In this document: piece after piece, positions 8,353 through 62,765 of the stretch
Position numbering within the stretch: position 1 is the first letter of the stretch
Layout of the letters: every line of letters begins with the position of its first letter
Program-made: the position numbers and the translations under genes
The notes under the pieces: generated by a model
Seen by the model: the letters and a program-made list of their open reading frames with translations, nothing else
The model's database searches: none
What the model was told of the DNA's origin: nothing
Origin: Candidatus Lutibacillus vidarii
GTDB taxonomy: Bacteria > Actinomycetota > Actinomycetes > Actinomycetales > Dermatophilaceae
Reading direction: 5' to 3'
Assembly: GCA_016717165.1 (NCBI GenBank)
Contig: JADKGA010000001.1
Coordinates: 188,592 to 252,591 of the forward strand
DNA length: 64,000 nucleotides

Positions 8353-8366
8353 GCGCCTCGACAACG

Positions 8367-8422
8367 CCAGGGTTGTTCGGTTCTGCCACCCCTGCAGGTG
8401 TGGCAAACCCGAACAACCCTGG
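8367..8422. terminator. long imperfect hairpin between convergent genes (bidirectional terminator candidate)
   Basis: ccagggttgttcggttctgccac ... gtggcaaacccgaacaaccctgg forms a 23-bp stem with 2 mismatches. It lies between the aminotransferase stop and the SulP stop. Confidence 0.6.
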
Positions 8423-8440
8423 CGGAGTCGGGCGCGCGGG

Positions 8441-14065: not shown

Positions 14066-14116
14066 CCGGAGCTCAGCGGCGGCTGAACGTGGTCCGCGGT
14101 ACGGCAGACTAGGTCG

Positions 14117-15966: not shown

Positions 15967-16151
15967 CGGTCCCGCAGCTTCTTTGGCTCTAGGTCTCAGC
16001 GCCGCAGCGAGGAGCTGTGCCCCAGCCGCGAGGCGCATTGCGTTCAGGTGGGGGCGATGCTCCGGCAGTGGTCCCCTGGCCTTTGAGTCGAGGCGTGTGT
16101 TCAGGCCGCAGGGCAGGCGACGTCGGGGAGTGGTTTGGCTCCTTATGCCGT

Positions 16152-16310
16152 GCTCCGTATCTGGGCGCAGCGGCCCTTTGCTCCGCATCTGGGCGCAGCG
16201 GCCCTTTGCTCCGCATGTGGACGCAGCGGCCCTTTGCTCCGCATGTGGGCGCAGCGGCCCTTTGCTCCGCATGTGGACGCAGCGGCCCTTTGCTCCGTAT
16301 CTCGGTGCGG
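16152..16310. repeat. 28-bp tandem repeat, about 5.5 head-to-tail copies (minisatellite)
   Basis: The unit gctccgcatgtgg(g/a)cgcagcggcccttt starts at 16152, 16180, 16208, 16236, 16264 and 16292. There are no spacers. More degenerate copies flank it. Confidence 0.9.
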
Positions 16311-26822: not shown

Positions 26823-26825
26823 CCC

Positions 26826-26908
26826 CCCTGTGGATAACCCGCAAAGACACACCTTTAGAAGCGTTCTAAAGGTGTGTCTTTGCGGGGCGGGGGAGGTTAT
26901 CCACAGGG
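26826..26908. repeat. palindromic intergenic element, copy 1
   Basis: The outer inverted repeat is ccctgtggataacc (26826-26839) / ggttatccacaggg (26895-26908). The core is a perfect 20-bp hairpin: gcaaagacacacctttagaa gcg ttctaaaggtgtgtctttgc (26841-26883). It lies between convergent genes. Confidence 0.9.
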
Positions 26909-26924
26909 TTGGGGTGCTGTGGGG

Positions 26925-28217
26925 CTAGAGGAGGCCGCGGCTCTTGAGCATGAGGTAGTGGTCCGCGAGCGCCGGCGGGAGCTGCTCGGGGGGCGCGTCG
27001 ACCACCGTCACCCCGAGGCGGCCCAGGGCCTCGACAACTCTGTCCTTGCTTGCCTGGGAACGCTCGGCCGCCGCCGCGTCGTAGACCTCCCGGGTGCTCG
27101 ACCGCGTCGCCGCCATCGCCGCGACGGTCGGATCCGCCACGGAGGCGATGACCACCCGGTGGTGCCGGGTCAGGGCCGCCAGCGTGGGCAGCAGGGTCTC
27201 CTCGACCACCACCGGCTCGACCGTCGTCAGCAGGACGACCAGCGCCCGCCGCCTGGTCACCTGGGCGACTCCGGCGGCCAGCCGGGTCCAGTCCGCCTCG
27301 ACGAGGGTGGGCTCAAGCGGGGCCATCGCCGTGACCAGTTCGGCGAGCAGCCGGGTCCGGTCCACGCCGCTCACCCGGGCCCGGACCCGCCGGTCGCCGG
27401 CGACGAGGTCGACCCGGTCGCCGGCCCGGGACGCGAGAGCCGCGAGCAGCAGCGCCGCATCCATCGACGCGTCGAGCCTGGGCATGTCGAGAACGCGCCC
27501 CGCCGAGAGCCGCGAGGTGTCGAGGACCAGCACCACCCGGCGGTCCCGTTCTGGCTGCCAGGTGCGCACCACCGGCGCGCGCCGCCGAGCCGTCGCCCGC
27601 CAGTCGATCGACCGGACGTCGTCGCCGTCGACATAGTCGCGCAGCGAGTCGAACTCGGTCCCGGCGCCCCGGATCCGGACCGCGCTGCGCCCGTCGATCT
27701 GGCGCAGCACCGCCAGCCGCGACGGCAGGTGCTTGCGCGAGTGGAAGGGCGGCAGCGCCCGCACCACCCCCGGCACCGGGACCGACCGCTGCCGCGCCGC
27801 GACCCCCAGCGGCCCGAACGCGCGCAGCGTGACATGGTCGGCCGGCCGGTCACCGCGCCGCACCGGTCGTAGCCCCGTCGTCAGTGCCCGCCGCTCACCC
27901 ACCGGCACATCGACGGTATGCCGCTCCCCGCTCGACCCCGCCGAGGGCAGCCAGGCGTCGCGGACCACCCCGCGCAGGTGCCGCCTCGAGCCGTTGGTGA
28001 CGTACAGGGTCGTCGACGCCGCCTCCCCCAGCCGCACCTGGCTGCCCGGCCCCCGCGCGAAGGACACCCCCCGTGGGTCGGCGCTCAGCAGCATGTCGAC
28101 GCCCGCGACGACGACGCAGAGCCCCACCCACGCCCAGGCGGTCGCAGCCGAGGGCGCCGCGAGCACGGCGAACACCCCGGCCAGGACCAGCACGGGGAAG
28201 CGACGGCTGAGCGCCAT
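26925..28217 (-). CDS. DUF58 (VWA-like) protein
   Basis: 430 aa with two N-terminal TM segments. FDSLRDYVDGDDVRSIDWRATAR is the DUF58 hallmark. It lies immediately downstream of MoxR. Confidence 0.85.
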   Translation of the reverse strand: MALSRRFPVLVLAGVFAVLAAPSAATAWAWVGLCVVVAGVDMLLSADPRGVSFARGPGSQVRLGEAASTTLYVTNGSRRHLRGVVRDAWLPSAGSSGERHTVDVPVGERRALTTGLRPVRRGDRPADHVTLRAFGPLGVAARQRSVPVPGVVRALPPFHSRKHLPSRLAVLRQIDGRSAVRIRGAGTEFDSLRDYVDGDDVRSIDWRATARRRAPVVRTWQPERDRRVVLVLDTSRLSAGRVLDMPRLDASMDAALLLAALASRAGDRVDLVAGDRRVRARVSGVDRTRLLAELVTAMAPLEPTLVEADWTRLAAGVAQVTRRRALVVLLTTVEPVVVEETLLPTLAALTRHHRVVIASVADPTVAAMAATRSSTREVYDAAAAERSQASKDRVVEALGRLGVTVVDAPPEQLPPALADHYLMLKSRGLL

Positions 28218-28223
28218 ACCGAC

Positions 28224-29266
<1,043 letters not shown>

Positions 29267-29270
<4 letters not shown>

Positions 29271-30532
29271 GACGGGCCTTCCGTTCGGGGCGGGGAGGAG
29301 AGGAGGTCCTCGAGGGCGGTCAGGTCTCGGGCCAGTGCGCCGAGGGCGGCCTCGTCGGCCGGGAGCGGGCCGGTGAGCACAGCAGCCACGGCGTCCTGCG
29401 AGCGCCCGGTCACCGCGGCCAGCCGCTCGGCGACGACATCCGCAGGCGCGTGAGAGGGCAGGCCGAGCCGGCGACGGAGCCGGGCCAACGTGGCAGAGCG
29501 CAGGATCGCGCCGGCCCGCCGGGTGTCCCGGGACCGGCGGTACAGCGCTCCGCGGGCTCGGGTGGTCTCGATCGCGCGGACCACGACCGGGAGGGGCTCG
29601 CGGACCAGCCGGCCCAGACGGCGCCCACGCACCAGTGCGAGCCCGGCCAGAGCGGCGGCGGCGAGCCACAGGCTGGGGGTGAACCAGCGCGGCAGCGCGG
29701 CCCGGATCACCCGCGCCCCCGATCCCTGGAGGTCGTCGAGCGTCGGGACATACCAGACCACTCGACTCGTGTGCCCCATCGCCCGCAGCGCCAGTGCGCC
29801 GGTGTCCCCGTCGAGGATCCGCTCGTTCGTCCAGGCCGGCGGGTCGGCGAAGACGGCCAGCGTCGGCTCCCCGCTGCGTTCGGTCACGACATAGGCCGCC
29901 ACCCCGTCGCTAACAAAGCAGGGAAGGACTGTCGGCGAGGCCGAGACGAGGAAGCCCCGGTCCATCACCCCGAGGCGCTCGCCCGCCCGGACGTCGGTGG
30001 TCCCGCAGTCCACTGCGACCGGGTCAGCCGAGGCGGGGTAGCCGACGACCGGCCAGTCGAGCCCGAACAGGTCGAGCGCCACGGGGTCGTCGGTCGTGAC
30101 GACGACCCGGGCTGCCGAGGAGATCGCGTCGTCAATGTCAGGCATGAGGAGTGGGTCGAGGAACCGGGTCGCCGTGACGACGACCGTGGTGTCCGCGTCG
30201 ACCCCGGCATCGGCGAGGGCGTCGACTCCCCTCGCGATGTCGACGCTCACGCCGTGGTCGGCGAGCACCCGAGCCAGCGCCCGGGACCCGGTGGGTCCGG
30301 CACTGTCCGGGTCGAGGGCGTCGGTCGTCGTGGACGTGAGCAGCGCGGCGACGAGCACGAAGCCGAGAGCGGCCAGGGCGAGGGTCCCGACGAGGACGGC
30401 CACGAGCCGGCGCCGGCGTCGGCGCCGCCCGGGCCCGCCCGCCGGTGCCTCCTGGCCGGCGTCGGTGGCCGGCTCCGCGGGGCCGTCGCCAGGGGTGCGG
30501 ACCACCTCGGTCGTCTCCGGTATGACGCTCAC
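29267..30532 (-). CDS. DUF4350-domain protein
   Basis: 421 aa with an N-terminal TM segment and a later TM segment. The position between DUF4129 and MoxR is the usual one. The family call is from memory of this gene order plus general sequence character. Confidence 0.65.
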
Positions 30533-31182
30533 GACGCCACCCCGACAAGGTCGGGCAGCGACCGAGGTCGAGCTGAACGCAGGGCGGCGTCGAGGTCCCG
30601 GACCTCCTCGGCCTCGGCGCGCCCGACCTGGAGCTTGCCGTAGAGGACCACGTCGAAGACGTCACCCGATCGGGCCAGCGCGGCGGCGTGGTCCGGGAAG
30701 AGCGGCGCCAGGCGCAGGGCCACCTCATGGGCGGTGAGGCCAGCCGAGGGGCCGAGCAGGGTTCGGTCGGCGGCCTCGCGGGCCAGGGCGCGGAACCACG
30801 CGACCACTGCGTCCCCGTAGCGTGCTTCGGCATACGCCTCGTCGGCGATGGTGCGCCACTGCGCGGGCGTGACCTCACCCTGGGGAAGCACCCCAGGGCG
30901 GGTTCGCCCGACCCGCACGCGGTCACCACGGACCCGCAGCAGCATGGCGAGGACCGCCACGACGAGAGCCACGGCGAGGACGGCCCCGAGGATCGACATC
31001 GACCCCCCGGAACCCCCTCCCACCGTCCCGAAGAGCGAGCCCAACCGGTCCGCGAGCCAACCCAGTACTGCCTGGAGTGGGTTGGGACCCTGGTGGTACT
31101 CCGGCCGGGCGAGCTCGTCGGTGAGCCACTGGTGCGCCGTCGCCCCGTCCGGGTCGAGGTCGCGCAGGAGCAGTGGGAGCAC
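30529..31182 (-). CDS. DUF4129-domain protein
   Basis: 217 aa. A TM segment is followed by a C-terminal region TAHEVALRLAPLFPDHAAALARSGDVFDVVLYG, typical of DUF4129. There is a 4-nt overlap with the downstream gene. Confidence 0.7.
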   Translation of the reverse strand: MLPLLLRDLDPDGATAHQWLTDELARPEYHQGPNPLQAVLGWLADRLGSLFGTVGGGSGGSMSILGAVLAVALVVAVLAMLLRVRGDRVRVGRTRPGVLPQGEVTPAQWRTIADEAYAEARYGDAVVAWFRALAREAADRTLLGPSAGLTAHEVALRLAPLFPDHAAALARSGDVFDVVLYGKLQVGRAEAEEVRDLDAALRSARPRSLPDLVGVAS

Positions 31183-31183
31183 G

Positions 31184-32443
31184 TCAGTGCCAGCCGGGGT
31201 TGGTCGCGCGAAGCAGCACCTGGTCGAAGCCCTCGCTGCGGATTCGCGCGTCGATATAGAGCAGCGAGATGACCCCCGAGACGAAGGGGGCAGTCACCGC
31301 GGACGCGAGCAGTGCGGCCAGGACCTCGGCGACCAGGGTGGCCGTGGGGCTGCTCGCGGGCATGGTGAGGCCGATGACCACACCTGAAGCGAAGCCCAGG
31401 CCGACCTCGAGCACCTGGTTGATGATGGAGATGACGATCCCGCTCAGCAGGAGGACGCCGAGGGTGCGCCACCACCGGCCCTTCGTCAAGGTCATGCTCC
31501 GACGGATCGCCGCCATGACCCGCAGGTCCTCGAGGACGAGCGCGGGCGTGGCGAAGGTCAGCCTGACGTACACCCAGACTCCGACGACGAACAAGACGAG
31601 GATGAGCAGGACCGCGAGCCCCTCGAGCTGCTTCACGCTCGCGATCAGCGCGATGACGACCATGGCCACCAGCCAGGAAGCGGCGAGAAGCAGCACCAGG
31701 AGGATCGCTCGCCCCAGCTTCCCCCTCGCCGCCGCCCAGATCTGGCTGAGGGTCACGGTGCGCCCGAGCACTGCTTCCCCCACGGCGTGGGACACGAAGA
31801 CCGGCAAGGTGACGCTGACCAGGAGGGAGACGATGGCGACCCCGCCCAGGGCGAGTGCCCCGACGGCCCAGTCTTTGCCCAGAGTGACCTCGTCGCCGTC
31901 GATGACAAGCAACCGGGACGTCCCGATGAGGGCGAGGATCGTCGTCGGGATCGCGGCGATGAGGTTGACGATGAGCGAGATGGCGAGGAGGGAGCCCTGG
32001 CTGCGGCGGAAGGCCCGGAAGGCGCCATCGAGGATCTCCCCGACGCCGAGCGGGCGCAGCGGCACGATCCCGGGCTTGGTCGTGTACCCCGGTCGGTCAC
32101 CGACCTGGGCTGCGGCCGGTGGTGGCGGGACCGCGACCGGCGGGGTCGGCAGCGCCGCAGTCGGCGTGGGGACCGGAACCGGCGCGGTCGGTGCGTCAGT
32201 GATCGGCCCCTGGTGGCTGGGTCCGGGACCGGGGTACGCGGGAGTCGGTGGCGGGTTGCCCTGCCCAGGAGCCGGGTATGCCGGTCCGGGAGCCGGGTAG
32301 CCCGGCCCAGGTGCCGGGTAGTCCCGCCCAGGAGCCGGGTATGCCGAACCCGGGTATGCCGGACCGGAGTCTGCCGGACCCGGGTCTGCCGGACCGGAGT
32401 CAGCAGCCGGACCCACCGGTCCGCTCTGGTCTGCGTCGCTCAC
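31184..32443 (-). CDS. membrane protein with a Pro/Ala/Tyr/Gly-rich N-terminus
   Basis: 419 aa. The N-terminal ~110 aa consist of PAYPG-like repeats, followed by about 6 TM segments. It is first gene of the MoxR-containing operon. Confidence 0.7.
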   Translation of the reverse strand: MSDADQSGPVGPAADSGPADPGPADSGPAYPGSAYPAPGRDYPAPGPGYPAPGPAYPAPGQGNPPPTPAYPGPGPSHQGPITDAPTAPVPVPTPTAALPTPPVAVPPPPAAAQVGDRPGYTTKPGIVPLRPLGVGEILDGAFRAFRRSQGSLLAISLIVNLIAAIPTTILALIGTSRLLVIDGDEVTLGKDWAVGALALGGVAIVSLLVSVTLPVFVSHAVGEAVLGRTVTLSQIWAAARGKLGRAILLVLLLAASWLVAMVVIALIASVKQLEGLAVLLILVLFVVGVWVYVRLTFATPALVLEDLRVMAAIRRSMTLTKGRWWRTLGVLLLSGIVISIINQVLEVGLGFASGVVIGLTMPASSPTATLVAEVLAALLASAVTAPFVSGVISLLYIDARIRSEGFDQVLLRATNPGWH

Positions 32444-32509
32444 GGCCCCCCCTGCGAAGGTGTGTTCTCGGACGTCTGAACGCTACCAAGGGCGGGGCCT
32501 TGGCGGGGT

Positions 32510-33361
32510 CTACGGCGTGACCGGGAGCGCCTCGACAACTCGACGCGCCACCTGCGGATCGCCGGAGACGGCATACCGACAGTCCTGCGCGCTGACCCGA
32601 CCGGCCCCGCGACGGGTGAACGAGCGGGTGTCCATGACCAGGCGAGTTGCCGCGGCGTCGGCGGTGGGGTCGACGACGACCCCCGTCGGGCGACCGTCGG
32701 CGCCGACCTCGACCCGCACCGCGCGCACCGCGTGGACCGGCCCGGTGACCTCGACGACCACCGTGGTCCCCGGGTCGATGCCGGCGCCGCGGGAGACGAT
32801 CCTCGGCAGCGAGTCGAGCACGACATGGACGAAGCCGGCCGATCCGACCGAGTCGAGCCCACCGGGCCGCCCGAGCGCCTCGCGGACATCCTGCTCATGG
32901 CACCACACGTCGGTCAGGCGCATCCGCATGACGTCCTTGGCCGGGGCCGGCGTGCCAAGCAGGCCGGTGATCACGGCGTCATCGTCGAGGGCCCGCAGCG
33001 CCGCCACACGCCGGGGGAGCACCGCCTCGAGCTCATCGAGCACCTCGTCAGCGGTGCGCCCACGGCGTGCCTCGACGCCCTGTTCGATGAAGGCGCCCAC
33101 CGGCGAGCGCAGCCAGGGATGGTCCGGGACGTCGACCTGAGGCTGCGGGTCTCCGGCGAGGAGGGACTCCACCGCCGCGACATGCGCGAGCTGGTCCTGG
33201 ACGGTCCAGCCCGGGCACGCGGTCGCTCGGCCCAGCTCGTCCGGGGTCGCGGCCCGCCCCAGCGCGAGGAGAGCCCGGACCGAGGCCTCGAAGCCGTCAA
33301 CTCGCTCGGCCATGGTGGTCGGTGGGTGGACGTCTGGCAGGTCACCTTGTGCCACGGTCAT
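32510..33361 (-). CDS. mycothiol-dependent maleylpyruvate isomerase-family (DinB-like) protein
   Basis: The N-terminal metal-binding region GWTVQDQLAHVAAVE plus overall length are typical of the TIGR03083-type family. Confidence 0.7.
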   Translation of the reverse strand: MTVAQGDLPDVHPPTTMAERVDGFEASVRALLALGRAATPDELGRATACPGWTVQDQLAHVAAVESLLAGDPQPQVDVPDHPWLRSPVGAFIEQGVEARRGRTADEVLDELEAVLPRRVAALRALDDDAVITGLLGTPAPAKDVMRMRLTDVWCHEQDVREALGRPGGLDSVGSAGFVHVVLDSLPRIVSRGAGIDPGTTVVVEVTGPVHAVRAVRVEVGADGRPTGVVVDPTADAAATRLVMDTRSFTRRGAGRVSAQDCRYAVSGDPQVARRVVEALPVTP

Positions 33362-33386
33362 GGGCCACTGTACCTAGGCTGGTCCT

Positions 33387-35576
33387 GTGGTCACCCGCCT
33401 CGAGTCCAACCCCCGTCCAGGTCGCGGTTCCGCGACACCGCTTGCCCTCGTCCCCGCCGCGCTCGCTGCGGCGACCGCGCTCCTGGCCGTTCTCCTCGCG
33501 ACACGCACGACCGGCCAGCTGGTGCCACCACCACCGGGCCTGACCGACCCCGGCGACCTGGTCCGCTACGGCCAACCGGTCGTCCGCGTGGTCCATGACC
33601 TCGCGGCCGCCATGACCCTCGGCCTGATCCTCCTCGCGGTAGGGATCGTCCCCGGGACCAGCTTCGGGCGTCGTTTGCACCGGATCCGTCGGCTGGCCGT
33701 CTGGTCCGGGTCGGTCTGGGCGCTCGCGGGGCTGGTCGGGGTCGTCCTCACCTTCTCGGACATCTCCGGAACCGCCGTGGGGGGCCCCGGCTTCCTGTCG
33801 CAGCTCCAGACCTTCGTGTGGTCGGTCGACGTCACCCGGATCGGCCTGGTCAGCGTCGCCCTCGTCTGGGTCGCGGTGACCTTCCTCGTCATCGCGACGT
33901 CCCGGGTCGGTGTGACCGCTGCGGGCGTCTTTGCCGCCCTGGGTCTGCTCGAGCTCGCCCTCGCCGGGCACTCCTCAGGGGCGGTCGACCATGAGACGGC
34001 AGTCAACACGATCGGCTTCCACCTCCTCGGCGCGGCGGTCTGGGTCGGCGGGCTGATGGCGCTGGCCGTCATACGCCCGATGGTGGGCAAGGACCTGCCT
34101 GTCGCCGTCCGGCGGTACTCCGTCGTGGCCGGGTGGTGCTTCCTCACCGTCCTGCTCTCGGGGGCGGTCAACGGCTGGGTGCGGCTGGGCTCGCTGGCCG
34201 GCTTCTCGACCACGTATGGCGCCGTCCTGCTCACCAAGGTGGTCGCGCTCGGTCTGCTGGGGCTCGCCGGGTTCGCGATGCGGGCCCGGGTGGTCCACGC
34301 GCTCGGCCTGTCGCCGGCCTCGGGGCGGCTGTTCGCCCGGCTTGCCCTGGTCGAGATGGCCCTGATGGGGGTCGCCTTCGGCGCGGCCGTGGCGCTGACC
34401 CGGGCGGCCCCGCCGGTCCCCGACACCCCGCAGGCGCAGCCGACCATCGTCGACGCCTTCACCGGCTTCGCGGCCCCGCCGGCACCGGAGTCACTGACCT
34501 GGCTGACCGCCTGGCGGTGGGACTGGCTCTGGGGAACCGCCGGGGTCGTCGCGGCCCTGCTCTACCTCGGCGCGGTCGTCCGGCTCTGGCGCCGCGGTGA
34601 CCGCTGGCCGATCGGGCGGACCATCTCCTGGCTCCTCGGCTGCCTCGTCTTCGTCTGGGCCTCGAGCGGGTCGCCGGGCATCTACGGCCGGGTCTCCTTC
34701 GCCTGGCACATGATCGAGCACATGTTCATGGCGATGGTCTCGCCGATCCTGCTCGTGCTGGGGACCCCGATCCTCCTGGTCATCCGGGTGCTGCACCCGC
34801 GGACGGATGGCACGCTCGGTCCGCGCGAGATCCTCCTCGGGTTCGTCCATTCGCGCTATATGACCATCCTCGCCAACCCCATCGTCGCCAGCTGTCTGTT
34901 CTTCTTCAGCATGGTCGTCTTCTACTACACGCCGCTGTTCGAGCTGGCGCTGCGCGCGCACGTGGGGCACGTCGCGATGGTCATCCACTTCGTCATGAGC
35001 GGCTACCTCTTCGCCTGGGTCCTCATCGGGGCGGACCCCGGCCCGCCGAAGTGGCCGGCGTCATACCGGCTGTTGATGCTCTTCGCGACGATCGGCTTCC
35101 ACGCCTTCTTCGGAGTGGCGCTGACCGGGTCGTCGACCCTGCTCGTGCCCTCCTTCTTCGAGCCGCTGAACATCCCGTGGATCCCCAACCCGCTCGACGA
35201 CCAGCATCAGGCCGGCGCGATCGCGTGGGGCGTCGGGGAGGTGCCCTCGCTCTTCCTCGCCCTGCTCGTCACGCTGTCGTGGATGCGCAGCGACGAGGCA
35301 GAGGCGCGACGGCACGACCGTCAGGCCGACCGGGACGGCGATGCGGACCTGGCCGCCTATAACGCCGAGCTGGCGCGGCTGGCCGCAGAGGATGCCCGGG
35401 TGGCGGCCTACGAGGCCGAGCAGGCCCAGGCGGTGCGGGATGCTCGGGACGCCCGGATGTCGGGGTCGCGGACCTCCTCGGGTGAGAGCTCGGGTTCCGG
35501 GGGTGCCGGCGGCGGCGTGGGTGGCCGTGGCGGTGGCGGCGGCGTGGGTGGCCGTGGCGGCGGTGCGTCGTCGTGA
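33387..35576 (+). CDS. fused CopD-like / cytochrome c oxidase assembly (CtaG, caa3-type) membrane protein with a Gly-rich tail
   Basis: 729 aa with about 14 TM segments. The second half contains WHMIEHMFMAMVSPILLVLG and GHVAMVIHFVMSGYLF, typical of CtaG. The C-terminus is SGSGGAGGGVGGRGGGGGVGGRGGGASS. Confidence 0.75.
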   Translation: MVTRLESNPRPGRGSATPLALVPAALAAATALLAVLLATRTTGQLVPPPPGLTDPGDLVRYGQPVVRVVHDLAAAMTLGLILLAVGIVPGTSFGRRLHRIRRLAVWSGSVWALAGLVGVVLTFSDISGTAVGGPGFLSQLQTFVWSVDVTRIGLVSVALVWVAVTFLVIATSRVGVTAAGVFAALGLLELALAGHSSGAVDHETAVNTIGFHLLGAAVWVGGLMALAVIRPMVGKDLPVAVRRYSVVAGWCFLTVLLSGAVNGWVRLGSLAGFSTTYGAVLLTKVVALGLLGLAGFAMRARVVHALGLSPASGRLFARLALVEMALMGVAFGAAVALTRAAPPVPDTPQAQPTIVDAFTGFAAPPAPESLTWLTAWRWDWLWGTAGVVAALLYLGAVVRLWRRGDRWPIGRTISWLLGCLVFVWASSGSPGIYGRVSFAWHMIEHMFMAMVSPILLVLGTPILLVIRVLHPRTDGTLGPREILLGFVHSRYMTILANPIVASCLFFFSMVVFYYTPLFELALRAHVGHVAMVIHFVMSGYLFAWVLIGADPGPPKWPASYRLLMLFATIGFHAFFGVALTGSSTLLVPSFFEPLNIPWIPNPLDDQHQAGAIAWGVGEVPSLFLALLVTLSWMRSDEAEARRHDRQADRDGDADLAAYNAELARLAAEDARVAAYEAEQAQAVRDARDARMSGSRTSSGESSGSGGAGGGVGGRGGGGGVGGRGGGASS

Positions 35577-36415
35577 GGGTTGCGCTGATCCAACTCGGGT
35601 ATGACGACGCCGAGCCGGTCGCAGAACGGGTCGAGCGGGCGGGTGCCCTGGTGCGCGACCAGGCCGGCGCCGATGTCGTCGTGTTGCCGGAGCTGTGGGC
35701 GCCAGGCGGCTTCGCGTACCCGAGCTGGCTGGACCGCGCCGAGCCGGTCGACGGACCGACCATGTCCGCCATGGCGGCGGCGGCCCGGTCGGCCGGGGTC
35801 TTCCTCCACGCCGGGTCGATCGTCGAGCGGCCGGCCTCCGGTGAGCTCGGCCTCGAGGGCCGCGGGCTGTGGAACACCTCGGTGCTCTTCGCCGCGGACG
35901 GGAGCCCGGCAGCGACATACCGCAAGATCCACCGGTTCGGGTTCGGCGCGGGGGAGCCCGCGCTGATGGACGCCGGGACCGACCTGGTGACCGTGGACCT
36001 GCCGGATCGAGGCGCGGGGGTGTCGATGCGGGCTGGGGTCTCGACGTGTTATGACCTGCGCTTCCCCGAGCTCTACCGGGCCCAGCTCGACCTTGGGGTC
36101 TCGGCCTTCCTGCTGTGCTCGTGCTGGCCGGCGGCTAGGGTCGCGCACTGGTCGCTGCTCGGGCGGGCCCGGGCGGTCGAGAACCAGTGTTTCGTCATCG
36201 CGTGCAACACCGCCGGCGAGCACGCCGGGGGGCGCATGGGCGGTCGCTCGCAGGTCGTTGCGCCGGACGGCACGGTGCTCGGTGAGGCCGGCGAGGCCGA
36301 GGAGGTTCTCGTCGTCGACCTCGACGTCGCCCAGGTCGCCGCCTGGCGAGCGGCCTTCCCCGTCCTCGCCGACCGCCGGTTATCCACACCCCCTCCTGCA
36401 AAGACACACCTTTAG
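35573..36415 (+). CDS. carbon-nitrogen hydrolase (nitrilase/omega-amidase family)
   Basis: The GTG overlaps the upstream stop (GTGA). MRVALIQLGYDD, with catalytic Cys in VSTCYDLRFPE. The last ~11 codons and the stop lie inside repeat copy 2. Confidence 0.85.
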   Translation: MRVALIQLGYDDAEPVAERVERAGALVRDQAGADVVVLPELWAPGGFAYPSWLDRAEPVDGPTMSAMAAAARSAGVFLHAGSIVERPASGELGLEGRGLWNTSVLFAADGSPAATYRKIHRFGFGAGEPALMDAGTDLVTVDLPDRGAGVSMRAGVSTCYDLRFPELYRAQLDLGVSAFLLCSCWPAARVAHWSLLGRARAVENQCFVIACNTAGEHAGGRMGGRSQVVAPDGTVLGEAGEAEEVLVVDLDVAQVAAWRAAFPVLADRRLSTPPPAKTHL

Positions 36416-36465
36416 AACGGTTCTAAAGGTGTGTCTTTGCAGAAAGGTGGGGGGTTATCCACAGG
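36378..36465. repeat. palindromic intergenic element, copy 2
   Basis: ggttatccaca (36378-36388). The core is a 21-bp perfect hairpin tgcaaagacacacctttagaa cgg ttctaaaggtgtgtctttgca (36397-36441). It is followed by ggttatccacagg (36453-36465). Confidence 0.9.
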
Positions 36466-36479
36466 AGGAGGGTTGACCC

Positions 36480-37529
36480 TTGCGCGCAGTGATCTACTCG
36501 GAGTACGGCGCCCTGCCGACCCTGCAGGAGGTCCCCGAACCGCGCTGTCCGGCTGACGGCGTCGTCGTCGCCGTCGAGGCGACCGGGGTCTGCCGCAGCG
36601 ACTGGCACGCCTGGATGGGCCACGACCCGGTCGCCCTCCCGCACGTCCCCGGTCATGAGCTGGCCGGCTCGATCGCCGAGGTCGGCCCCGATGTCACCAG
36701 GTGGCGGGTCGGCGACCGGGTCACCGTCCCCTTCGCCTGTGGTTGCGGCACCTGCCTCGTATGCCGCGCCGGGAACTCCCAGGTCTGCCCGAACCAGACA
36801 CAGCCCGGGTTCACCCACTGGGGCTCCTTCGCTGACCGGGTGGCCCTGCACGCCGCGGACTCGAACCTCATCGCCCTCCCGGGCACGGTCACCGCGGTCG
36901 ACGCGGCCGCGCTCGGCTGCCGGTTCGCCACCGCCTTCGGCGCCCTCGTCGGGCGGGGACGCCTGACCAGCGGAGAGTGGCTCGTCGTCCACGGCGCGGG
37001 CGGCGTAGGTCTGTCGGCGGTGATGATCGGTATGGCGCTCGGCGCTCGAGTTGTTGCCGTCGACGTCTCCCAAGCCGCCCTCGACCAGGCCGGCGACCTC
37101 GGCGCGGAGGTCATCATACGGACAACCGATAAAGACGACCCGACCCTGGTCGCACGCCGGGTCATCGACGCAACCGAGGGCGGCGCCCACGTCAGCATCG
37201 ACGCCTTCGGGTCCACCGCCACAGCGCTCGCCTCGATCGGCGGACTCCGACAGCGCGGTCGGCACGTCCAGGTCGGCCTGCTCCTCGCCGCCGACGCGGT
37301 CCTGCCGGTCGCCATGGGGCCGGTGGTGGCGCGTGAGCTCGAGATCCTCGGATCGCACGGCCTCGCGGCCGCCGGCTACCCCCCGATGATGGACCTGCTC
37401 GCCTCCGGCGCACTCGACCCCGGCCGGCTCGTCGGCCGTGTCATCAGTCTCGACGAGGCGGGCCGGGCGCTGGCCGAGCTCGGCTCACGCGGTGGCGCGC
37501 CTGGCCTTCACGTGGTCCGACTGCGCTAG
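36480..37529 (+). CDS. zinc-dependent alcohol dehydrogenase family protein
   Basis: 349 aa with a TTG start per the ORF track. Catalytic-zinc region GVCRSDWH ... GHELAG, structural-zinc cluster CGCGTCLVCRAGNSQVC, and Rossmann motif VHGAGGVG. Confidence 0.85.
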   Translation: MRAVIYSEYGALPTLQEVPEPRCPADGVVVAVEATGVCRSDWHAWMGHDPVALPHVPGHELAGSIAEVGPDVTRWRVGDRVTVPFACGCGTCLVCRAGNSQVCPNQTQPGFTHWGSFADRVALHAADSNLIALPGTVTAVDAAALGCRFATAFGALVGRGRLTSGEWLVVHGAGGVGLSAVMIGMALGARVVAVDVSQAALDQAGDLGAEVIIRTTDKDDPTLVARRVIDATEGGAHVSIDAFGSTATALASIGGLRQRGRHVQVGLLLAADAVLPVAMGPVVARELEILGSHGLAAAGYPPMMDLLASGALDPGRLVGRVISLDEAGRALAELGSRGGAPGLHVVRLR

Positions 37530-37577
37530 CCCGTATCAAGCGGGCCAGCGCAGCCGGACGACCACGGCGTCGAGTCC

Positions 37578-38885
37578 TCAGAGCCCGTTGAGGCCCTTCG
37601 GCGAGCCCAGACCCGAGGGGGCGTCATACCCCTTGAGGCCGGTGCAGAGGTAGTCGCCCCCGCAGAAGCCGTTCGAGCCACCGATGACGTCGTAGAACGC
37701 CCACGGCTTCTTGTACGCCTGGCCCGGCCGGTACGTCGAGCCATTGCCCTTGGACCCGATCATGCCGGCGATCAGGGGCGCCGAGGCGCTCGTCCCACCG
37801 AGGACCAGCCAGCCCGGCGGGATGCCGAAGGGGTTGGGGTAGCTGTCGTAGACCGCGACGCCAGTGGCGGGGTCGGCAACGGCAGACAGGTCCGAGACAG
37901 TGCGCATCTGACAGTTCGGGTCGGTCTGGTGGGCAGGTTTGGCGACATAAGCCGAGCAGGAGCTGCCTGCCCCGGACCACACGTCCTCGGTCCAGCCCCG
38001 CACGTTCGGGGCACGGAACAAGCTGGTTCCGCCGACCCCGAGGACGCCGGGCAGGACGGCCGGAGCCAAGGCCGCGGTGAAACCGTAGTCGCCGGAGGAC
38101 GCCACCGAGATGGCGCCGGGCTGGTTATAGACCGACGCGAAGGACCACATGCCGCCCCACTCATTGCCGCCATAGCTGTGCGAGATGACGGTGGCGCCCA
38201 GCCGGGTCGCGGTGCGGGTGGCCGCGGCGAGATCGACGAAGTTGTTGGTCTGCGCGGTGACGAGCAGGATCGTGCAGGACGGGCATCCGGCGGAGACCAT
38301 CTGCAGGTCCAAGGATCCTTCCAGGGCCCAGCCACCGTCGGGGGCCGGATAGGGGCCGGGGTCGCCGTTCTGGTTGACCTTGCGGAAGCAGCCGTTCGCT
38401 GAGGTGCACGCGGGCAGGCCAAAGGTCGAGCGGTAGGTCGCGAGGTCGGCTTCGGCGTTGGGGACGTCGAAGGCGATGACGACCGCGACCAGCGATCTCG
38501 CGCCTACTGCCGGGAGCTTGTATGCCGCGCGAAGTTCGGCCGGGCCATAGCCGCTCGGCGTGGTCAGGGTCCCCGCGGCCGTGCGGATCTGGCGTGGTGC
38601 GGCGGCAGCGTCGGTACGGACCTTGGCCAGGCACCGGGCCTTCCCGATCGTGGTGGCCCCGCACACGTCCTGAGTCCTCGGGCCAGCCGTGGTCGGGGCG
38701 GCGGAGACCGGCTGGGCCGCGGTGAGCGCGGGTGAGCCGCTAGCCCTCGATGTCTCCGCGGCGACCGCGGGTCCGGGCAGCAGTGGTGTGACCGCGAGCG
38801 CGATCAGCGTGAACAGGCTGAGTGTGGTCCGGCGAACGGACAGTGCCATGAGCGCGTTCCCTTTCGGAGCAGATGAGTGCGCCAT
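37578..38885 (-). CDS. secreted S53 (sedolisin-type) serine peptidase
   Basis: Signal peptide present (alternative start ATG 38849, MALSVRRTTLSLFTLIALAV). GYGPAELRAAYKLP, WALEGSLDLQM (Glu/Asp region) and GGTSASAPLIAGM (Ser nucleophile). Confidence 0.75.
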   Translation of the reverse strand: MAHSSAPKGNALMALSVRRTTLSLFTLIALAVTPLLPGPAVAAETSRASGSPALTAAQPVSAAPTTAGPRTQDVCGATTIGKARCLAKVRTDAAAAPRQIRTAAGTLTTPSGYGPAELRAAYKLPAVGARSLVAVVIAFDVPNAEADLATYRSTFGLPACTSANGCFRKVNQNGDPGPYPAPDGGWALEGSLDLQMVSAGCPSCTILLVTAQTNNFVDLAAATRTATRLGATVISHSYGGNEWGGMWSFASVYNQPGAISVASSGDYGFTAALAPAVLPGVLGVGGTSLFRAPNVRGWTEDVWSGAGSSCSAYVAKPAHQTDPNCQMRTVSDLSAVADPATGVAVYDSYPNPFGIPPGWLVLGGTSASAPLIAGMIGSKGNGSTYRPGQAYKKPWAFYDVIGGSNGFCGGDYLCTGLKGYDAPSGLGSPKGLNGL

Positions 38886-38888
38886 CGG

Positions 38889-41132
38889 TCAGCGGACCGT
38901 GAAGGCGGCGGTGACGAGTTCGGTGAAGTGCCCACCGACAGCGTCGCTGATGGAGACCTTGAACCTCGCCGGTTTCGTCGTCGGTGAGGCTGGTGGGGTC
39001 GTGAACGTGACAGTGAAGTTGCCCGACCCTTCGGAGATGACGCCGGTCCGCTGCCAGGTTCCACCGCCGTCGAAGGAGACGAACATCGCGGGGGTGGAGA
39101 CCGTGATCGGTTGGGCGGCGTTGACATGGCTGACGAGCAGCCGAGCACGGGTCGTCCCAGCAGCGAGCCGCCCGGAGAGGTCGGTCGGTATCTGGTAGCG
39201 GACTGTCATCAGGGGAAGTACCCGGCACCCGGCAGGATCTGCGCCCATCTGTGCCGCGCACTGCCAGTCGAACGGGGCGGGCTTGGTGGCCGCGGTGAGC
39301 GGGGTATCCCAGTGGGTCACGGTGTGGCTAGGAGTCTTGGCGCCGCTGACCCGCCCATCGGTCGTGTAGTCGATCGACACCGTGGATGCCGTGGAGGCCC
39401 CACCCATGGTCGCGGCGAGCTGCCCATCCCCGGACCCGACAACGAACCCGTCGAAGGCCACCTTCCAGGACGCGACCGCACGCGGACTGTCGTTGATTGG
39501 GTCTGGTGCGCCGATATGGGTGGGTTCGGCGTCGCTGAACGGGTGGGCCACCACGGTGAGCTCGTCGCCGACGACGCACGCTGGGCACAGAGTCGGGCCG
39601 AACACCGAGGCCACCTCCGAGAGCCGGGGTGTCAGAGGTGCCTTGTTCCACGTCTGGGCCCTGCTGGTCCCAGGCTGTGGTGTCCACGGCCCAGCGCTGA
39701 GGTAGCCGTAGAACGCGAAGGTGTCGGGATCGATCTCGGCGAAGTAGTCGTCGGCGACCACGGTGCCCGGAGGGGCGGCGACATACTCGGTTCGCTCCAG
39801 CGGTACGGGCACCGACATCGCGAACCCGCCCCCGCCGTAGCTCCCGATGAACGCGCGACCTGGCATGCCAAGGGCGGGTGCCGGCGAGGAGTACGACGCT
39901 CTCACTGCCGTGAGGTCCGCAGCGCGGGTGAGGAAGGTCAGTGAGCCGGGGATCCCCCCGGTGCCGATTCGCGCCACGTCATAGGTGTAGGGCGCAGCGC
40001 CGGTGGGTGAGTCCAGATGGGCCAGCGCAGACCAGTCCAGGCTTCCGACCCGCGGCGGAGCGACTGGGCTGACGCGCAAGTCGATATCGCCGAAGCCGAA
40101 GACCGTGGCACCGAAGGTGTCGAGCTGAGCGGCGTCGGTCAGGGTCGCGCTATAGGCGAGGGCACCGAGCGTCGCGGGTCGGGGCGTGGAAAGACGCACC
40201 GGGACGGTCGCGGTCCTCGCGTCGACGGTGGCCGAGGTGGCTCCCGCGACCGGGACGTCGGTGCGAACGGCCAGTTGCACGCGGTTGGGTGTGACCGGAT
40301 CCGGGGCACTGGCCACCAGGGCATAGGTGCCGGCCGGGACACTCACCCTGGCGACGCCCCTGGAGACGAAGGCTATGCCGACATACCTCGCCATCTCCTC
40401 CATGTTGACGACGGCGACGATGCCGTTGTTCATGGCCTTACCGTTGGCGGCGGTGGCGTTGACGGTGAGAGTGAACATCGGGAACTGGGGCTGCACGCCA
40501 CCGCTCGACGCTGCGGTGATCTTGGCGACCGAGCCGAAAAGGGTGGTGGCCGACGCCGTCCGCAGTGCCACCCCGAGCGCGGCACTGCTGGACGGCGTGA
40601 CCCGACCCGTGGCGATGAGCCCCGAGCGGCTGAGGATCTCCACACCGGGTACGGCCGTGGGTGCGGAGGTGCTGGTGTAGGTCACCGTGACGGGAAGGCC
40701 GGACGGCCCGGCGGAGGTCAGCGCAAACACGTCGAACAGCGAGGGGTCGAGCCGCACGCCGAGGACCGTGGTCAGCGCCAGGGGGAAGGCGAAGGTCGTC
40801 GTCGGGGTGGTGATGACGGTCACGGCCGACCCGCTGATGCTGCTGACCCGGGGGGCCGCCCGCCCGGTGGGGGTTCGCACGACCGAGACGACATCTCCGC
40901 CGAGGATGCGGACCCGTTGCGGGCCGGTCGCGGCGTCGGCTCGGGACGTGGGGTCTGCGGCGACCGCGAGTGCGGCGGGCTGTGCGACGGCGCGCCCCAG
41001 GGTCGAGGGACCCGGTGAAGCGGCTCGAGGGGCGGTCAGAGCGGGGGCGGCGACAGCGGGGGCAGTGAGCCCGGCGAGGGCTAGGGCGAGGGACAAGGCA
41101 GACAGAGGGGCGACGACATGACGTCGAGACAC
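38889..41132 (-). CDS. large secreted protein of unknown function (beta-rich, no catalytic motif recognised)
   Basis: 747 aa with signal peptide MSRRHVVAPLSALSLALALAGLTAPAVAAP. The composition is Thr/Ala/Val/Pro-rich. The stop lies 3 nt before the S53 peptidase start. Confidence 0.7.
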   Translation of the reverse strand: MSRRHVVAPLSALSLALALAGLTAPAVAAPALTAPRAASPGPSTLGRAVAQPAALAVAADPTSRADAATGPQRVRILGGDVVSVVRTPTGRAAPRVSSISGSAVTVITTPTTTFAFPLALTTVLGVRLDPSLFDVFALTSAGPSGLPVTVTYTSTSAPTAVPGVEILSRSGLIATGRVTPSSSAALGVALRTASATTLFGSVAKITAASSGGVQPQFPMFTLTVNATAANGKAMNNGIVAVVNMEEMARYVGIAFVSRGVARVSVPAGTYALVASAPDPVTPNRVQLAVRTDVPVAGATSATVDARTATVPVRLSTPRPATLGALAYSATLTDAAQLDTFGATVFGFGDIDLRVSPVAPPRVGSLDWSALAHLDSPTGAAPYTYDVARIGTGGIPGSLTFLTRAADLTAVRASYSSPAPALGMPGRAFIGSYGGGGFAMSVPVPLERTEYVAAPPGTVVADDYFAEIDPDTFAFYGYLSAGPWTPQPGTSRAQTWNKAPLTPRLSEVASVFGPTLCPACVVGDELTVVAHPFSDAEPTHIGAPDPINDSPRAVASWKVAFDGFVVGSGDGQLAATMGGASTASTVSIDYTTDGRVSGAKTPSHTVTHWDTPLTAATKPAPFDWQCAAQMGADPAGCRVLPLMTVRYQIPTDLSGRLAAGTTRARLLVSHVNAAQPITVSTPAMFVSFDGGGTWQRTGVISEGSGNFTVTFTTPPASPTTKPARFKVSISDAVGGHFTELVTAAFTVR

Positions 41133-41265
41133 GACTCAACCTTCCGGCCGGTCAAGCAAGCGCGGGTGGGGAGGGGCCACCCGAGGGGCAGCCGAGACGT
41201 CCCCTACCGACCATGACGCCGTTCGCGGCCAAATGGTTGCTTCGCCGGATCCAAGACTTCGTCAA

Positions 41266-41348
41266 CAGTTATCCCCACCCTGTGGATAAACCGCAAAGAC
41301 ACACCTTTACAAGGGTTCTAAAGGTGTGTCTTTGCAGGTTTTCCACAG
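41266..41348. repeat. palindromic intergenic element, copy 3 (slightly degenerate)
   Basis: Degenerate box ttatcccca (41268-41276) precedes ccctgtggataaacc. The core is gcaaagacacaccttta caagggttc taaaggtgtgtctttgc (41292-41334), followed by aggttttccacagg. It ends 2 nt before the fadE-like stop. Confidence 0.85.
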
Positions 41349-41349
41349 G

Positions 41350-43227
41350 TTAGAAGGCGTCCTCCGGCACAACCATGAGGGCGTTGTCGGTCGCCTCGGC
41401 GATCGCGCGGTCGGCGGTGATCCGCGGCAGCACGGTCCGGCAGAAGAACGAGGCCGCGGCCACCTTGCCGGTGTAGAAGCTCGTGTCGGCCGCGGACATC
41501 GACTCGCCGCGGGTGTCCAGCGCCGCCTGGGCGATCTCGGCCTGCCGCATGAGCAGCCACCCGATGATGACGTCACCGGCGGCCAGCAGCAGCCGGCTGG
41601 TGTTCTGCCCGACTTTGTAGAGGTTGGTCACCTCGCCGCCCATCCGCGGGTCGGACTGCATCAGCGTCCCGACCATGAAGCCGAGCATGCCCTGGACGTC
41701 CTCGAGGCCCTGCCCGAGCAGCTCACGCTCGCGCTGCAAGGACGACGGCGAGCCGTCGCCGCCCTTGACGAACTCGGTGATCTGGCCCGCGATATAGGTC
41801 AGCGCAGCGCCCTTGTCCTTGACGATCTTGCGGAAGAAGAAGTCCAGGCCCTGGATCGCCGTCGTGCCCTCGTAGAGCGTGTCGATCTTCGCGTCCCGGA
41901 CGTACTGCTCGATCGGGTAGTCCCGGAGGAATCCGGACCCGCCGAAGGTCTGCAGCGACTCGGTGCCCAGCAGCGTCCAGGCCCGCTCGGACCCGAAGCC
42001 CTTGACGATCGGCAGCAGCAGGTCGTTGACCTTCTCGGCCATCGCCGCCGGCGAGGACGGGTCGAGGTGCGCCCACCCGTTCGCGGCCTGGGCCATCGCG
42101 ACGGCGTCCTGCTGGGTCGCGGTGTAGCAGACCAGCGCGCGCAGGCCCTCGGCATACGCCTTCTGGAGCATGAGCGAGCGGCGCACGTCCGGGTGGTGGG
42201 TGATCGTCACGCGCGGCGCGTCCTTGGCCGGGGTCGTGAGGTCGGCGCCCTGGACCCGCTCTTTGGCGTACGCGAGCGCGTTGAGGTAGCCGGTCGAGAG
42301 GGTCGCCATGGCCTTGGTGCCGACCATCATCCGGGCGCCCTCGATGATGTGGAACATCTGGGCGATGCCGTCGTGGACGTCGCCGAGCAGGGTGCCGACG
42401 GCTGGGTGCTTCTCGCCGAAGCGGACCTCGCAGGTCGTCGAGACCTTGATGCCCATCTTGTCCTCGACATTGGTGACATAGGCACCGTTGCGCTCGCCGA
42501 GCTCACCGGTGGCGAGGTCGACGTGGTATTTCGGTACGACAAAGAGCGACAGTCCCTTGGTGCCGGGGCCGGCGCCCTCGGGACGGGCCAACACCATGTG
42601 GATGACGTTCTCGACCATGTCCGACTCGGCCGAGGTGATGAACCGTTTGACGCCGGTGATGTGCCACGTCCCGTCGGGCTGCTGCACTGCCTTGGTGCGC
42701 CCCGAGCCGACGTCCGAGCCCGCGTCGGGCTCGGTCAGCACCATCGTCGCGCCCCAGTTCTTCTCGGCGAGGTATGCCGCCATCGTCTTCTGGTCGGCGT
42801 TGCCGAGCCGGTAGAGCACCTGGCCCATGGCGAAGGACGAGCCGTAAAGGTGGATCGCCGGGTTCGCGCCGAGGATCATCTCGAGCAGCGCCCACCTCAG
42901 CGACATCGGGGCGGCGATGCCACCGATCTCGGTCGGGATGTCGATGCGCCAGACCTCGGAGTCGAGGAAGGCCTTGTAGGACTTCTTGAAGGCCGCCGGG
43001 ATGACCACGGTGTTGGTCTCCGGGTCGAACTTCGGCGGCTGGCGGTCGGCCTCGACGAAGGAGTCGGCCAGCGGCCCCTCGGCGAGCTCCTTGATCTGGT
43101 GGAGCATGTCCCGCGCGGCCTCTTCGTCGAGGTCCTCGTAGATGCCCTTGCCGAGGATCTCCTGGCGGTTGAAGACCTCGAAGAGGTTGAACTCGAGGTC
43201 ACGGACGTTGCTCTTGTAGTGGCCCAT
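41350..43227 (-). CDS. large acyl-CoA dehydrogenase (FadE5-type)
   Basis: 625 aa. [19 protein letters not shown] is almost the same N-terminus I recall for mycobacterial FadE5. The central ACAD fold carries a C-terminal extension. Confidence 0.85.
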
Positions 43228-43418: not shown

Positions 43419-43441
43419 TTATCCACAGGGGCTGTGGATAG
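43419..43441. repeat. solo inverted pair of the TTATCCACA box, without the hairpin core
   Basis: ttatccaca gggg c tgtggatag. These are the same boxes that flank the three full elements. Confidence 0.8.
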
Positions 43442-62710: not shown

Positions 62711-62765
62711 TCGTTCAAGGGGCTACGGTGGGGTGAGCGCGGCGCGGCGGCGCCGGTTCACTCGT

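Follow-up and report, generated by a model that had tools for sequence, protein, structure and literature searches.

The window analysed here, a 64,000-nucleotide stretch of the genome of Candidatus Lutibacillus vidarii, contains three copies of a palindromic element. They belong to a family of palindromic repeats of ~70–100 bp, which is dispersed in Ca. L. vidarii and in related Dermatophilaceae from activated sludge. The explanation that we favour, and to which we give an even chance of being correct, is that the family is similar to the REPINs formed by repetitive extragenic palindromic (REP) sequences, that it is maintained or dispersed by a Vsr-like protein, and that it has a secondary role as a hairpin at 3′ ends.

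The 20-nt arm GCAAAGACACACCTTTAGAA, with up to three mismatches allowed, has six matches in the window, which form three inverted pairs with their members 3 nt apart. In dinucleotide-preserving shuffles of the window the arm gave 0.00 matches. All three copies (Table 1) have the core GCAAAGACACACCTTTAGAA-N3-TTCTAAAGGTGTGTCTTTGC, which is perfect in copies 1 and 2 and contains one mismatch in copy 3 (TTTACAA). The first-pass annotation had located these copies at 26826–26908, 36378–36465 and 41266–41348, and they are as it described them, including the pattern of mismatches. It had also called the core AT-rich, which is borne out by a G+C content of 40% in the arm, compared with ~71% in the window. 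On either strand, the predicted folding energies of the window elements range from −48 to −66 kcal/mol, and their z-scores from −6.7 to −9.7. The box TTATCCACA was found 12 times in the window with up to one mismatch, against 1.5 expected, and seven of these occurrences flank cores.

The family extends well beyond the window. A scan of metagenomes retrieved 96 contig stretches, each through one exact arm, and these together with the window contain 105 cores at ~41 distinct loci. Several of the metagenome contigs carry two copies a few kilobases apart. The copies in the window are accordingly members of a dispersed family rather than three local duplications, and the description of the element as non-autonomous, REP-like and dispersed fits both the further copies and the empty sites in close relatives that are described below. 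When one genome per species was scanned in a similar way for the exact arm, there were matches in two contigs only, one from a metagenome-assembled genome (MAG) of Nocardioides and one from a Dermatophilaceae MAG; the genome of the window itself was not recovered, and the scan is thus uninformative on copy number. The host is identified by three window proteins, which are identical to MBK9723648, MBK9723654 and MBK9723659 of a Ca. L. vidarii MAG, a member of the Dermatophilaceae from activated sludge.

No described family matches, in agreement with the first-pass annotation, which recognised no known REP family. Rfam at gathering thresholds finds only two tRNAs in the window, and in E-value mode the element matches only generic miRNA-precursor hairpins, below threshold. 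The full-text literature search gave no paper with the core sequence, and nothing on REP sequences or their REP-associated tyrosine transposases (RAYTs) in Actinobacteria. The core has no match in plasmid and phage collections (blastn) or in viral contigs (pattern scan). One copy, at 2790–2860 of L001 (fetched loci are given L numbers), is in a contig binned as Nocardioides, which belongs to another order. It lies between divergent genes, and both of its boxes are altered in step (TGTGCATAA...TTATGCACA). Either the family has been transferred horizontally, or the contig is wrongly binned.

The 20+3+20 core is effectively invariant, with stem pairs 2–19 unchanged in 55 distinct copies. The loop is always 3 nt long and nearly always G or C, and is otherwise free. 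The 5′ flank is rich in C and the 3′ flank in G; both vary in length, and they are mostly complementary, such that they lengthen the stem. The box, (CC)TGTGGAYAA, occurs 0–3 times per element, and in 828 kb of sequence 131 of the 141 TGTGGAYAA/TTRTCCACA boxes (93%) are within 45 nt of a core. The commonest arrangement is palindromic, with 3 nt separating box and core (38 per side), but the opposite orientation is also seen, as TTATCCACA-cccctcccc-core-ggggagggg-TGTGGATAA, and there are mixed and box-less copies. The first-pass annotation took the boxes to be terminal inverted boxes, which would imply terminal inverted repeats. This view is not supported, because they are optional, occur in either orientation and at variable spacing, and are sometimes absent or multiple. 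Searching the same 828 kb with nhmmer, with filters off, revealed no decayed or half copies and no solitary arms; apart from the known copies there were only chance matches in unrelated low-G+C contigs.

Orthologous loci were compared pairwise, after grouping the contigs by their flanks. In pairs whose distant flanks are 19.7% diverged, the arms differ at 0.7% of positions (6/920), compared with 22% in the loop and 25% in the first 40 nt beside the core. In pairs with distant flanks only 0.5% diverged, the corresponding values are 0%, 20% and 3.7%. The core thus stays unchanged once present, while its surroundings diverge. The loop is hypervariable: ~20% of its positions differ between contigs with flanks 0.5% apart, often with two or three bases changed together. 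This could be due to gene conversion among copies, to a mutation process specific to the loop, or to mis-assembly through the 43-nt repeat.

The first-pass annotation proposed that relatives be searched for empty sites, and these are present at copies 1 and 3. The MAG that provides L099 and L103 (GCA_052034115.1) is ~85% identical to the window at the DNA level and has the same gene order, with no element in 38 kb. At the site of copy 1, the convergent stop codons in L103 and L104 are 9 nt apart, compared with 102 nt in the window. No target-site duplication is visible at copy 1, which is the one clean comparison of an empty and a filled site. At the site of copy 3, L099 has a GC-rich hairpin and L100 a canonical hairpin with a T-tract, and by eye the alignment with the window resumes downstream of the site. 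The CN-hydrolase beside copy 2 has a conserved C-terminus that ends ...DRR(L), and the element starts at the Leu codon, adding 10 residues and a stop codon. On the basis of the empty sites at copies 1 and 3 and the start of copy 2, whole elements are gained or lost at the ends of genes, and one element sits where relatives have an ordinary terminator hairpin.

Elements can also be retained for a long time, and orthologous copies persist across ~14–20% divergence. Copy 3 is present in L073 and in L088, where the acyl-CoA dehydrogenase gene is 85.8% identical to that of the window at the DNA level. Between L088 and the window, the linker and boxes of copy 3 have changed in step on both sides (ATAAACC...AGGTTTT and ACAACGT...ACGTTGT). 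The interval between copies 2 and 3 (window 36466–41265), which encodes an alcohol dehydrogenase (ADH), an S8 peptidase and a 747-aa protein, is variable in comparison with L099, L100 and L101. In L099 it contains the genes of the window and an acyltransferase, without elements; in L100 it contains a DUF6458 gene; and Segeticoccus rhizosphaerae has 11 nt between the genes for acyl-CoA dehydrogenase and CN-hydrolase, which there are convergent.

Genes at the element loci were called with a codon-position G+C model. Elements are faced by 49 gene 3′ ends and 25 gene 5′ ends, and their contexts comprise 13 convergent, 18 tandem and 2 divergent arrangements. Two of the most perfect copies have divergent neighbours. 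In at least 11 cases the stop codon is within the element, seven of these being the core TAG of CCTTTAGAA and four the TAA of TGTGGATAA, and many further stop codons are located 0–5 nt from a box. The three window copies follow this pattern. The genes around them are ordinary chromosomal ones: copy 1 lies between convergent genes for SpoIIM-like and DUF58 proteins, with a TGA 3 nt before the element and the other stop codon 16 nt beyond it; copy 2 lies between tandem genes for a CN-hydrolase and a zinc-dependent ADH; and copy 3 lies between tandem minus-strand genes, next to that for acyl-CoA dehydrogenase. The placement at gene ends proposed in the first-pass annotation (convergent for copy 1, tandem for copies 2 and 3) therefore stands, with the refinement that the CN-hydrolase reading frame ends inside the core of copy 2, at the TAG at 36413–36415.

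The closest described actinobacterial analogue is TRIT (tuberculosis Rho-independent terminator), from Mycobacterium (Gardner et al., 2011; PMC3152330), which was compared by behaviour only. TRITs are palindromic, conserved in both sequence and structure, present in 147 copies and bidirectional. They occur in a narrow range around stop codons, inside the coding sequence at about −8, and in one lineage only. They differ from the present family in that they are reported from Mycobacterium only, that no partner gene is described for them, and that their role as terminators is doubtful in Term-seq data. A role as bidirectional terminator fits the position of our elements, and fits the one locus that has ordinary terminators in relatives; because the terminator function of TRITs is not borne out by Term-seq, we infer such a role and take it no further. 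In outline, the element would be transcribed at the end of the gene or genes that read into it, and the C-rich tract followed by the stable hairpin might then cause pausing or termination, or block 3′ exonucleases, in both directions.

A protein that acts on the elements was looked for in their surroundings. The genes lying between paired elements are housekeeping genes. No transposase was detected by Pfam domains of the sampled between-element genes or by all-against-all clustering of 739 open reading frames (ORFs). Nor was an IS200/Y1-like ORF found in ~0.95 Mb around the elements, although this search, made with phmmer and with IS200 and IS608 TnpA as queries, was a weak one. Of the two kinds of cognate gene that the first-pass annotation suggested, a RAYT or TnpA(REP)-like gene was thus not found, while a different candidate was, outside the window. 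This candidate, located between ctaB and ctaA, is the gene for P0241 (L095/L112), a 302-aa DUF559/MTES_1575 protein. Full elements flank the gene on both sides, and 24 nt upstream of the start codon there is a TGTGGATAA box. The 90% identity cluster of P0241 includes MBK9724760.1, which is named as Ca. L. vidarii and most likely comes from the same assembly as the proteins of the window, because its accession is close to theirs.

Homologues of P0241 with ~40–48% identity were examined at six loci, and in all six the gene is bracketed, upstream and downstream, by a lineage-specific hairpin of its own: CCAAGGGTGGGAGAAGCAC in L034 (family X2), CGCTATAGCCCACGCG-ATCCATCACTCGGCG in L108, CTACTGCACCCTCGCG in L110, GCAAATGGTGGGTTCAGC in L116, ACGGCAACACGCCGA in L117 (Oryzobacter terrae) and AGGCAACACGCA in L118. 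As a control, 595 distinct complete genes from all loci were screened for the same palindromic 12-mer in both 300-nt flanks. Six were positive, all of them members of the DUF559 family, and none of the ~589 others. The sequence CTGTGGAT or its complement is present within ~80 nt upstream of the start codon in 8/8 loci, compared with a background of ~1 per 25 kb. In L117 and L118 the gene is at the same chromosomal position in different species, and the hairpins have co-diverged.

In family X2, a loop of ~30 nt is enclosed by arms CCAAGGGTGGGA(G/A)AAGCAC. Its copies bracket the DUF559 paralogue of L034 at 12840–12905 and 14030–14100, and a solo copy is found in L062 (12443–12505), between a stop codon 47 nt before it and a tRNA-like sequence. 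With this solo copy, the number of dispersed hairpin families is at least two, and each has a paralogue of its own.

Some details of these loci are as follows. The bracketed gene is at ~2500–3450 in L108, L110, L116, L117 and L118, or at the coordinates listed for them, and in L116 five tandem 19-nt repeats (ACCTGCCCACGGTGCCAAC) lie between hairpin and gene. L062 also contains an ORF at 12995–14079 with a DUF559-like C-terminal motif (...ELDGALYH...) and no Pfam match. It has CCTGTGGATAA 40 nt upstream of a candidate ATG, its frame is seemingly interrupted near 13100–13160, and it may be a pseudogene. In L114 (positions 1–160, 2.3x coverage), the left flank of the L037 element locus (7640–7726) is joined to the DUF559 gene, through a shared 53 nt, as seen by comparison with L112 2100–2260. 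Either the gene has a second genomic context, or L114 is a chimeric assembly.

The AlphaFold model of P0241 is confident (pLDDT 94.9). With its C-terminal domain, Foldseek matches Vsr (1vsr) and the homing endonuclease I-Bth0305I (3r3p) with probability 1.00, and 3hrl with 0.89. The protein scores 28.5 bits with PF04480 (cut-off 20.6), and 33.7 bits with PF18741, which is below the cut-off of 38.2; 19 of 21 homologues match both families. Residues D233, E244, G247 and R263 are invariant, and Y245, H250 and D260 nearly so. P0241 therefore shares with Vsr and I-Bth0305I the C-terminal fold and conserved acidic and histidine residues, but unlike them has ~230 uncharacterised N-terminal residues, without a match in Pfam, and is free-standing and bracketed by hairpins, not located in an intron or intein. 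With the whole-length model Foldseek also matches FASTK/RAP-type proteins, though weakly (E = 3e-3 to 0.3, TM 0.27), and two members of the family have weak Pfam RAP matches. The family is large, with 4,129 clusters at 50% identity (E ≤ 1e-30), and none of its members was found in viral contigs. Among publications that mention DUF559, none is on repeats, as judged from titles and abstracts.

These observations suggest how the system might work. The elements would be non-autonomous, and recognised, copied or maintained in trans. The trans-acting partner would be the ~300-aa protein with its C-terminal Vsr-like PD-(D/E)XK nuclease domain (DUF559/MTES_1575). Recognition would be through the invariant arms, and the box would be a putative binding site common to the elements and to the upstream region of the partner gene itself.

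Several points weigh against this explanation. The association of protein and elements is positional only, and the meaning of the bracketing could be the reverse, with the gene targeting the hairpins rather than spreading them. As a terminator the hairpin is unusual. It has no U-tract, its 40% G+C stem is followed by G-rich sequence, and a terminator scan does not call it; a U-tract is reportedly required by mycobacterial RNA polymerase (PMC3993855), and Term-seq data show that TRIT predictions coincide poorly with mapped 3′ ends. Retrieval through an exact arm inflates the conservation of the arms, although the second arm was unselected, and loop differences between near-identical contigs of low coverage may in part be assembly artefacts. 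Covariation in the flanking stem (three linker pairs) is weak, being reached by 12 of 500 shuffles, and the counts of G·U and A·C on the sense strand, 44 and 28 respectively, give no clear preference for RNA or DNA.

The alternatives that survive best are two, both of which we consider unlikely, and both have in common with the favoured explanation that protein and hairpin recognise each other. According to the first, the element is a TRIT-like RNA module of the host, in which the DUF559 protein, as a RAP/FASTK-like protein, binds the transcribed hairpin sequence-specifically and processes, terminates or stabilises mRNA 3′ ends. The invariance of the arms would then come from recognition of RNA by protein, and the protein would regulate its own expression via the flanking hairpins. 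Relatives with ordinary terminator hairpins at the position of copy 3 are consistent with this, as are the weak FASTK and RAP matches, although a TM of 0.27 is a poor likeness. An RNA module leaves the spread of identical 43-nt cores to new loci unexplained, and the clean 93-nt insertion at copy 1 requires a process at the DNA level. The location of two of the most perfect copies between divergent genes also argues against it, and the strand counts of G·U and A·C give it no clear support.

In the second, the DUF559 genes are selfish genes, similar to homing endonucleases, which insert in or beside palindromic repeats that are dispersed by something else. IS1397 and similar elements insert into REPs in this way. 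The catalytic domain does resemble I-Bth0305I, and the position of the gene, between ctaB and ctaA, is just that in which one would expect a single inter-gene element. In L114 the same gene is connected to another element locus, but this contig has 2.3x coverage, is joined through a 53-nt repeat and may be chimeric. Similarly, 13 of the 14 contigs that carry the gene are <2 kb long, which is expected anyway because repeats flank the gene. The shared chromosomal position and co-diverged hairpins of L117 and L118 suggest instead vertical inheritance at a single locus.

A further proposal, to which we attach very little weight, is that the elements are protein-binding sites on DNA based on DnaA boxes, in which the boxes would form the stem of a hairpin in single-stranded DNA that serves in titration of DnaA or in priming. 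The 'A site' of the ABC primosome is reportedly a priming site of this kind (Masai and Arai). The boxes TTATCCACA, TTGTCCACA, TTATGCACA and TTTTCCACA do fit the consensus TTWTNCACA or TTGTCCACA, the variants fall at degenerate positions of the consensus, and the boxes pair with each other in the predicted hairpin. Against this, the resemblance was noticed post hoc, and the boxes are optional and vary in spacing and orientation, with none at several loci, while the core never varies. The presence of the same 8-mer upstream of DUF559 genes in several genera points to the DUF559 family.

It is equally improbable that these are ordinary miniature inverted-repeat transposable elements (MITEs) of an insertion sequence (IS) with a DDE transposase, having the TGTGGATAA boxes as terminal inverted repeats with TG...CA ends. 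The commonest arrangement does end in CCTGTGG...CCACAGG, and presence or absence varies among relatives. However, there is no visible target-site duplication at copy 1, the boxes are optional, can be multiple and occur in either orientation, and the centre rather than the ends is most conserved. Furthermore, neither a longer element with the same ends nor a transposase was found in ~0.95 Mb around the copies, and orthologous copies persist through ~14–20% divergence. The Correia elements of Neisseria, which are MITEs, and the palindrome-associated transposable elements (PATEs) of IS200/IS605 resemble the present family in being small, non-autonomous, hairpin-forming and intergenic, and in affecting transcript ends. 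The present family differs from them in that no target duplication, whether of TA or of other sequence, is visible, that terminal inverted repeats are not fixed, and that neither a parent IS nor TnpA was found.

Inverted pairs of DNA uptake sequences (DUS/USS) are a further likeness, as terminators between convergent genes, in which the arms are invariant in sequence and the loops are free. Uptake sequences are mostly single copies, which also occur inside genes; here there is no solitary arm in 828 kb. Integron attC, dif/Xer and telomere-resolvase sites, uptake sequences and CRISPR were rejected because of the asymmetric 3-nt centre and the absence of arrays and of single arms.

Table 1. Positions in the window of the three elements, their cores and their boxes, and of one box palindrome that lacks a core (a dot means that no strand is assigned)
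Feature	Position	Strand	Remarks
Copy 1, full spacer between convergent genes	26823..26924	.	102 nt; element proper 26826-26908; fold -66 kcal/mol
Copy 1, core hairpin	26841..26883	.	20+3+20, perfect, loop GCG
Copy 1, box TGTGGATAA	26829..26837	-	3 nt from core
Copy 1, box TTATCCACA	26897..26905	+	13 nt from core, with G-rich spacer between
Copy 2	36378..36465	.	starts at final codon of CN-hydrolase; encodes last 11 residues and stop
Copy 2, core hairpin	36398..36440	.	perfect, loop CGG
Copy 2, box TTATCCACA	36380..36388	+	distal arrangement, C-rich spacer
Copy 2, box TTATCCACA	36455..36463	+	followed by AGGAGG ribosome-binding site of ADH gene
Copy 3	41266..41349	.	adjoins TAA stop of acyl-CoA dehydrogenase (41350-41352, minus strand)
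Copy 3, core hairpin	41293..41335	.	one mismatch, loop GGG
Copy 3, box palindrome TTATCCCCA-ccc-TGTGGATAA	41269..41289	.	left of core 3
Copy 3, box variant TTTTCCACA	41339..41347	+	
Coreless box palindrome TTATCCACA-ggggc-TGTGGATAg (TTATCCACAggggcTGTGGATAg)	43419..43441	.	divergent promoter region upstream of acyl-CoA dehydrogenase

The coreless box palindrome in the last row of Table 1 has the acyl-CoA dehydrogenase gene on one side and a small ORF on the other. It is found in the same place in L100 (9789–9809), which has no core elements, and it may be an operator or a relic.

The window contains three other repeats. At 8359–8430 there is an imperfect palindrome of 72 nt, with 36-nt arms that are 86% complementary and no loop, filling the space between convergent genes whose ends are at 8352 and 8441; none of the fetched loci contains another copy. 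The second repeat, at 16151–16302, consists of 5.4 head-to-tail copies of a 28-nt unit (TGCTCCGCATCTGGGCGCAGCGGCCCTT) with 94% identity, and is apparently non-coding. A degenerate C-rich repeat with a period of ~22/44 nt occupies 62750–63230, in which an 82-nt segment is duplicated 269 nt apart with 89% identity.

Returning to REPIN-like repeats with a Vsr-like partner, the likeness to REP/REPIN-RAYT systems is extensive. In both there are short extragenic hairpin palindromes, dispersed in tens to hundreds of copies and mostly at gene 3′ ends, with no target duplication, vertical inheritance and persistence at orthologous sites. The repeats bracket the partner gene in either system, and a single genome may contain several pairs of repeat and gene. 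REPs have a GT(A/G)G tetranucleotide 5′ of the hairpin, and the box here contains GTGG (cTGTGGATAA), but it is optional and its spacing is variable. The structure also differs, being one perfect hairpin with 20-bp arms and optional boxes and not a doublet of imperfect REPs, and the host is an actinobacterium, with an AT-rich core in a ~71% G+C genome. The present family is not a member of the REP/REPIN-RAYT class, because the defining enzyme, a Y1/HUH transposase (RAYT), was not found in a weak search, and the bracketed gene encodes a Vsr-like PD-(D/E)XK nuclease instead.

More tentatively, and with somewhat less than even confidence, we suggest that the large family of DUF559/Vsr-like proteins, whose members combine this nuclease domain with an N-terminal domain of ~230 residues, is the partner of lineage-specific palindromic repeat families in Actinobacteria, forming a second, non-HUH and vertically inherited system of the REPIN-RAYT kind. 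Each gene would then lie between two copies of its own hairpin, and dispersed copies would mark the ends of genes. This might explain elements such as the mycobacterial TRITs too.

REP-like repeats are well studied in Proteobacteria, where they are explained by RAYT transposases, whereas the origin and upkeep of conserved palindromes that hug stop codons in high-G+C Gram-positive bacteria, such as TRITs, remain unexplained. The present family is a clean case, with an invariant 43-nt core, clear empty sites and a specific candidate partner that can be tested. It also has a practical side, in that metagenome assemblies of the host, a phosphate-accumulating organism from wastewater plants, are broken up by the repeats. 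If the DUF559/Vsr-like partner is real, thousands of 'hypothetical' actinobacterial proteins would gain a function, a second class of enzyme would have evolved the RAYT lifestyle, and the definition of 3′ ends in bacteria without canonical terminators would be open to experiment.

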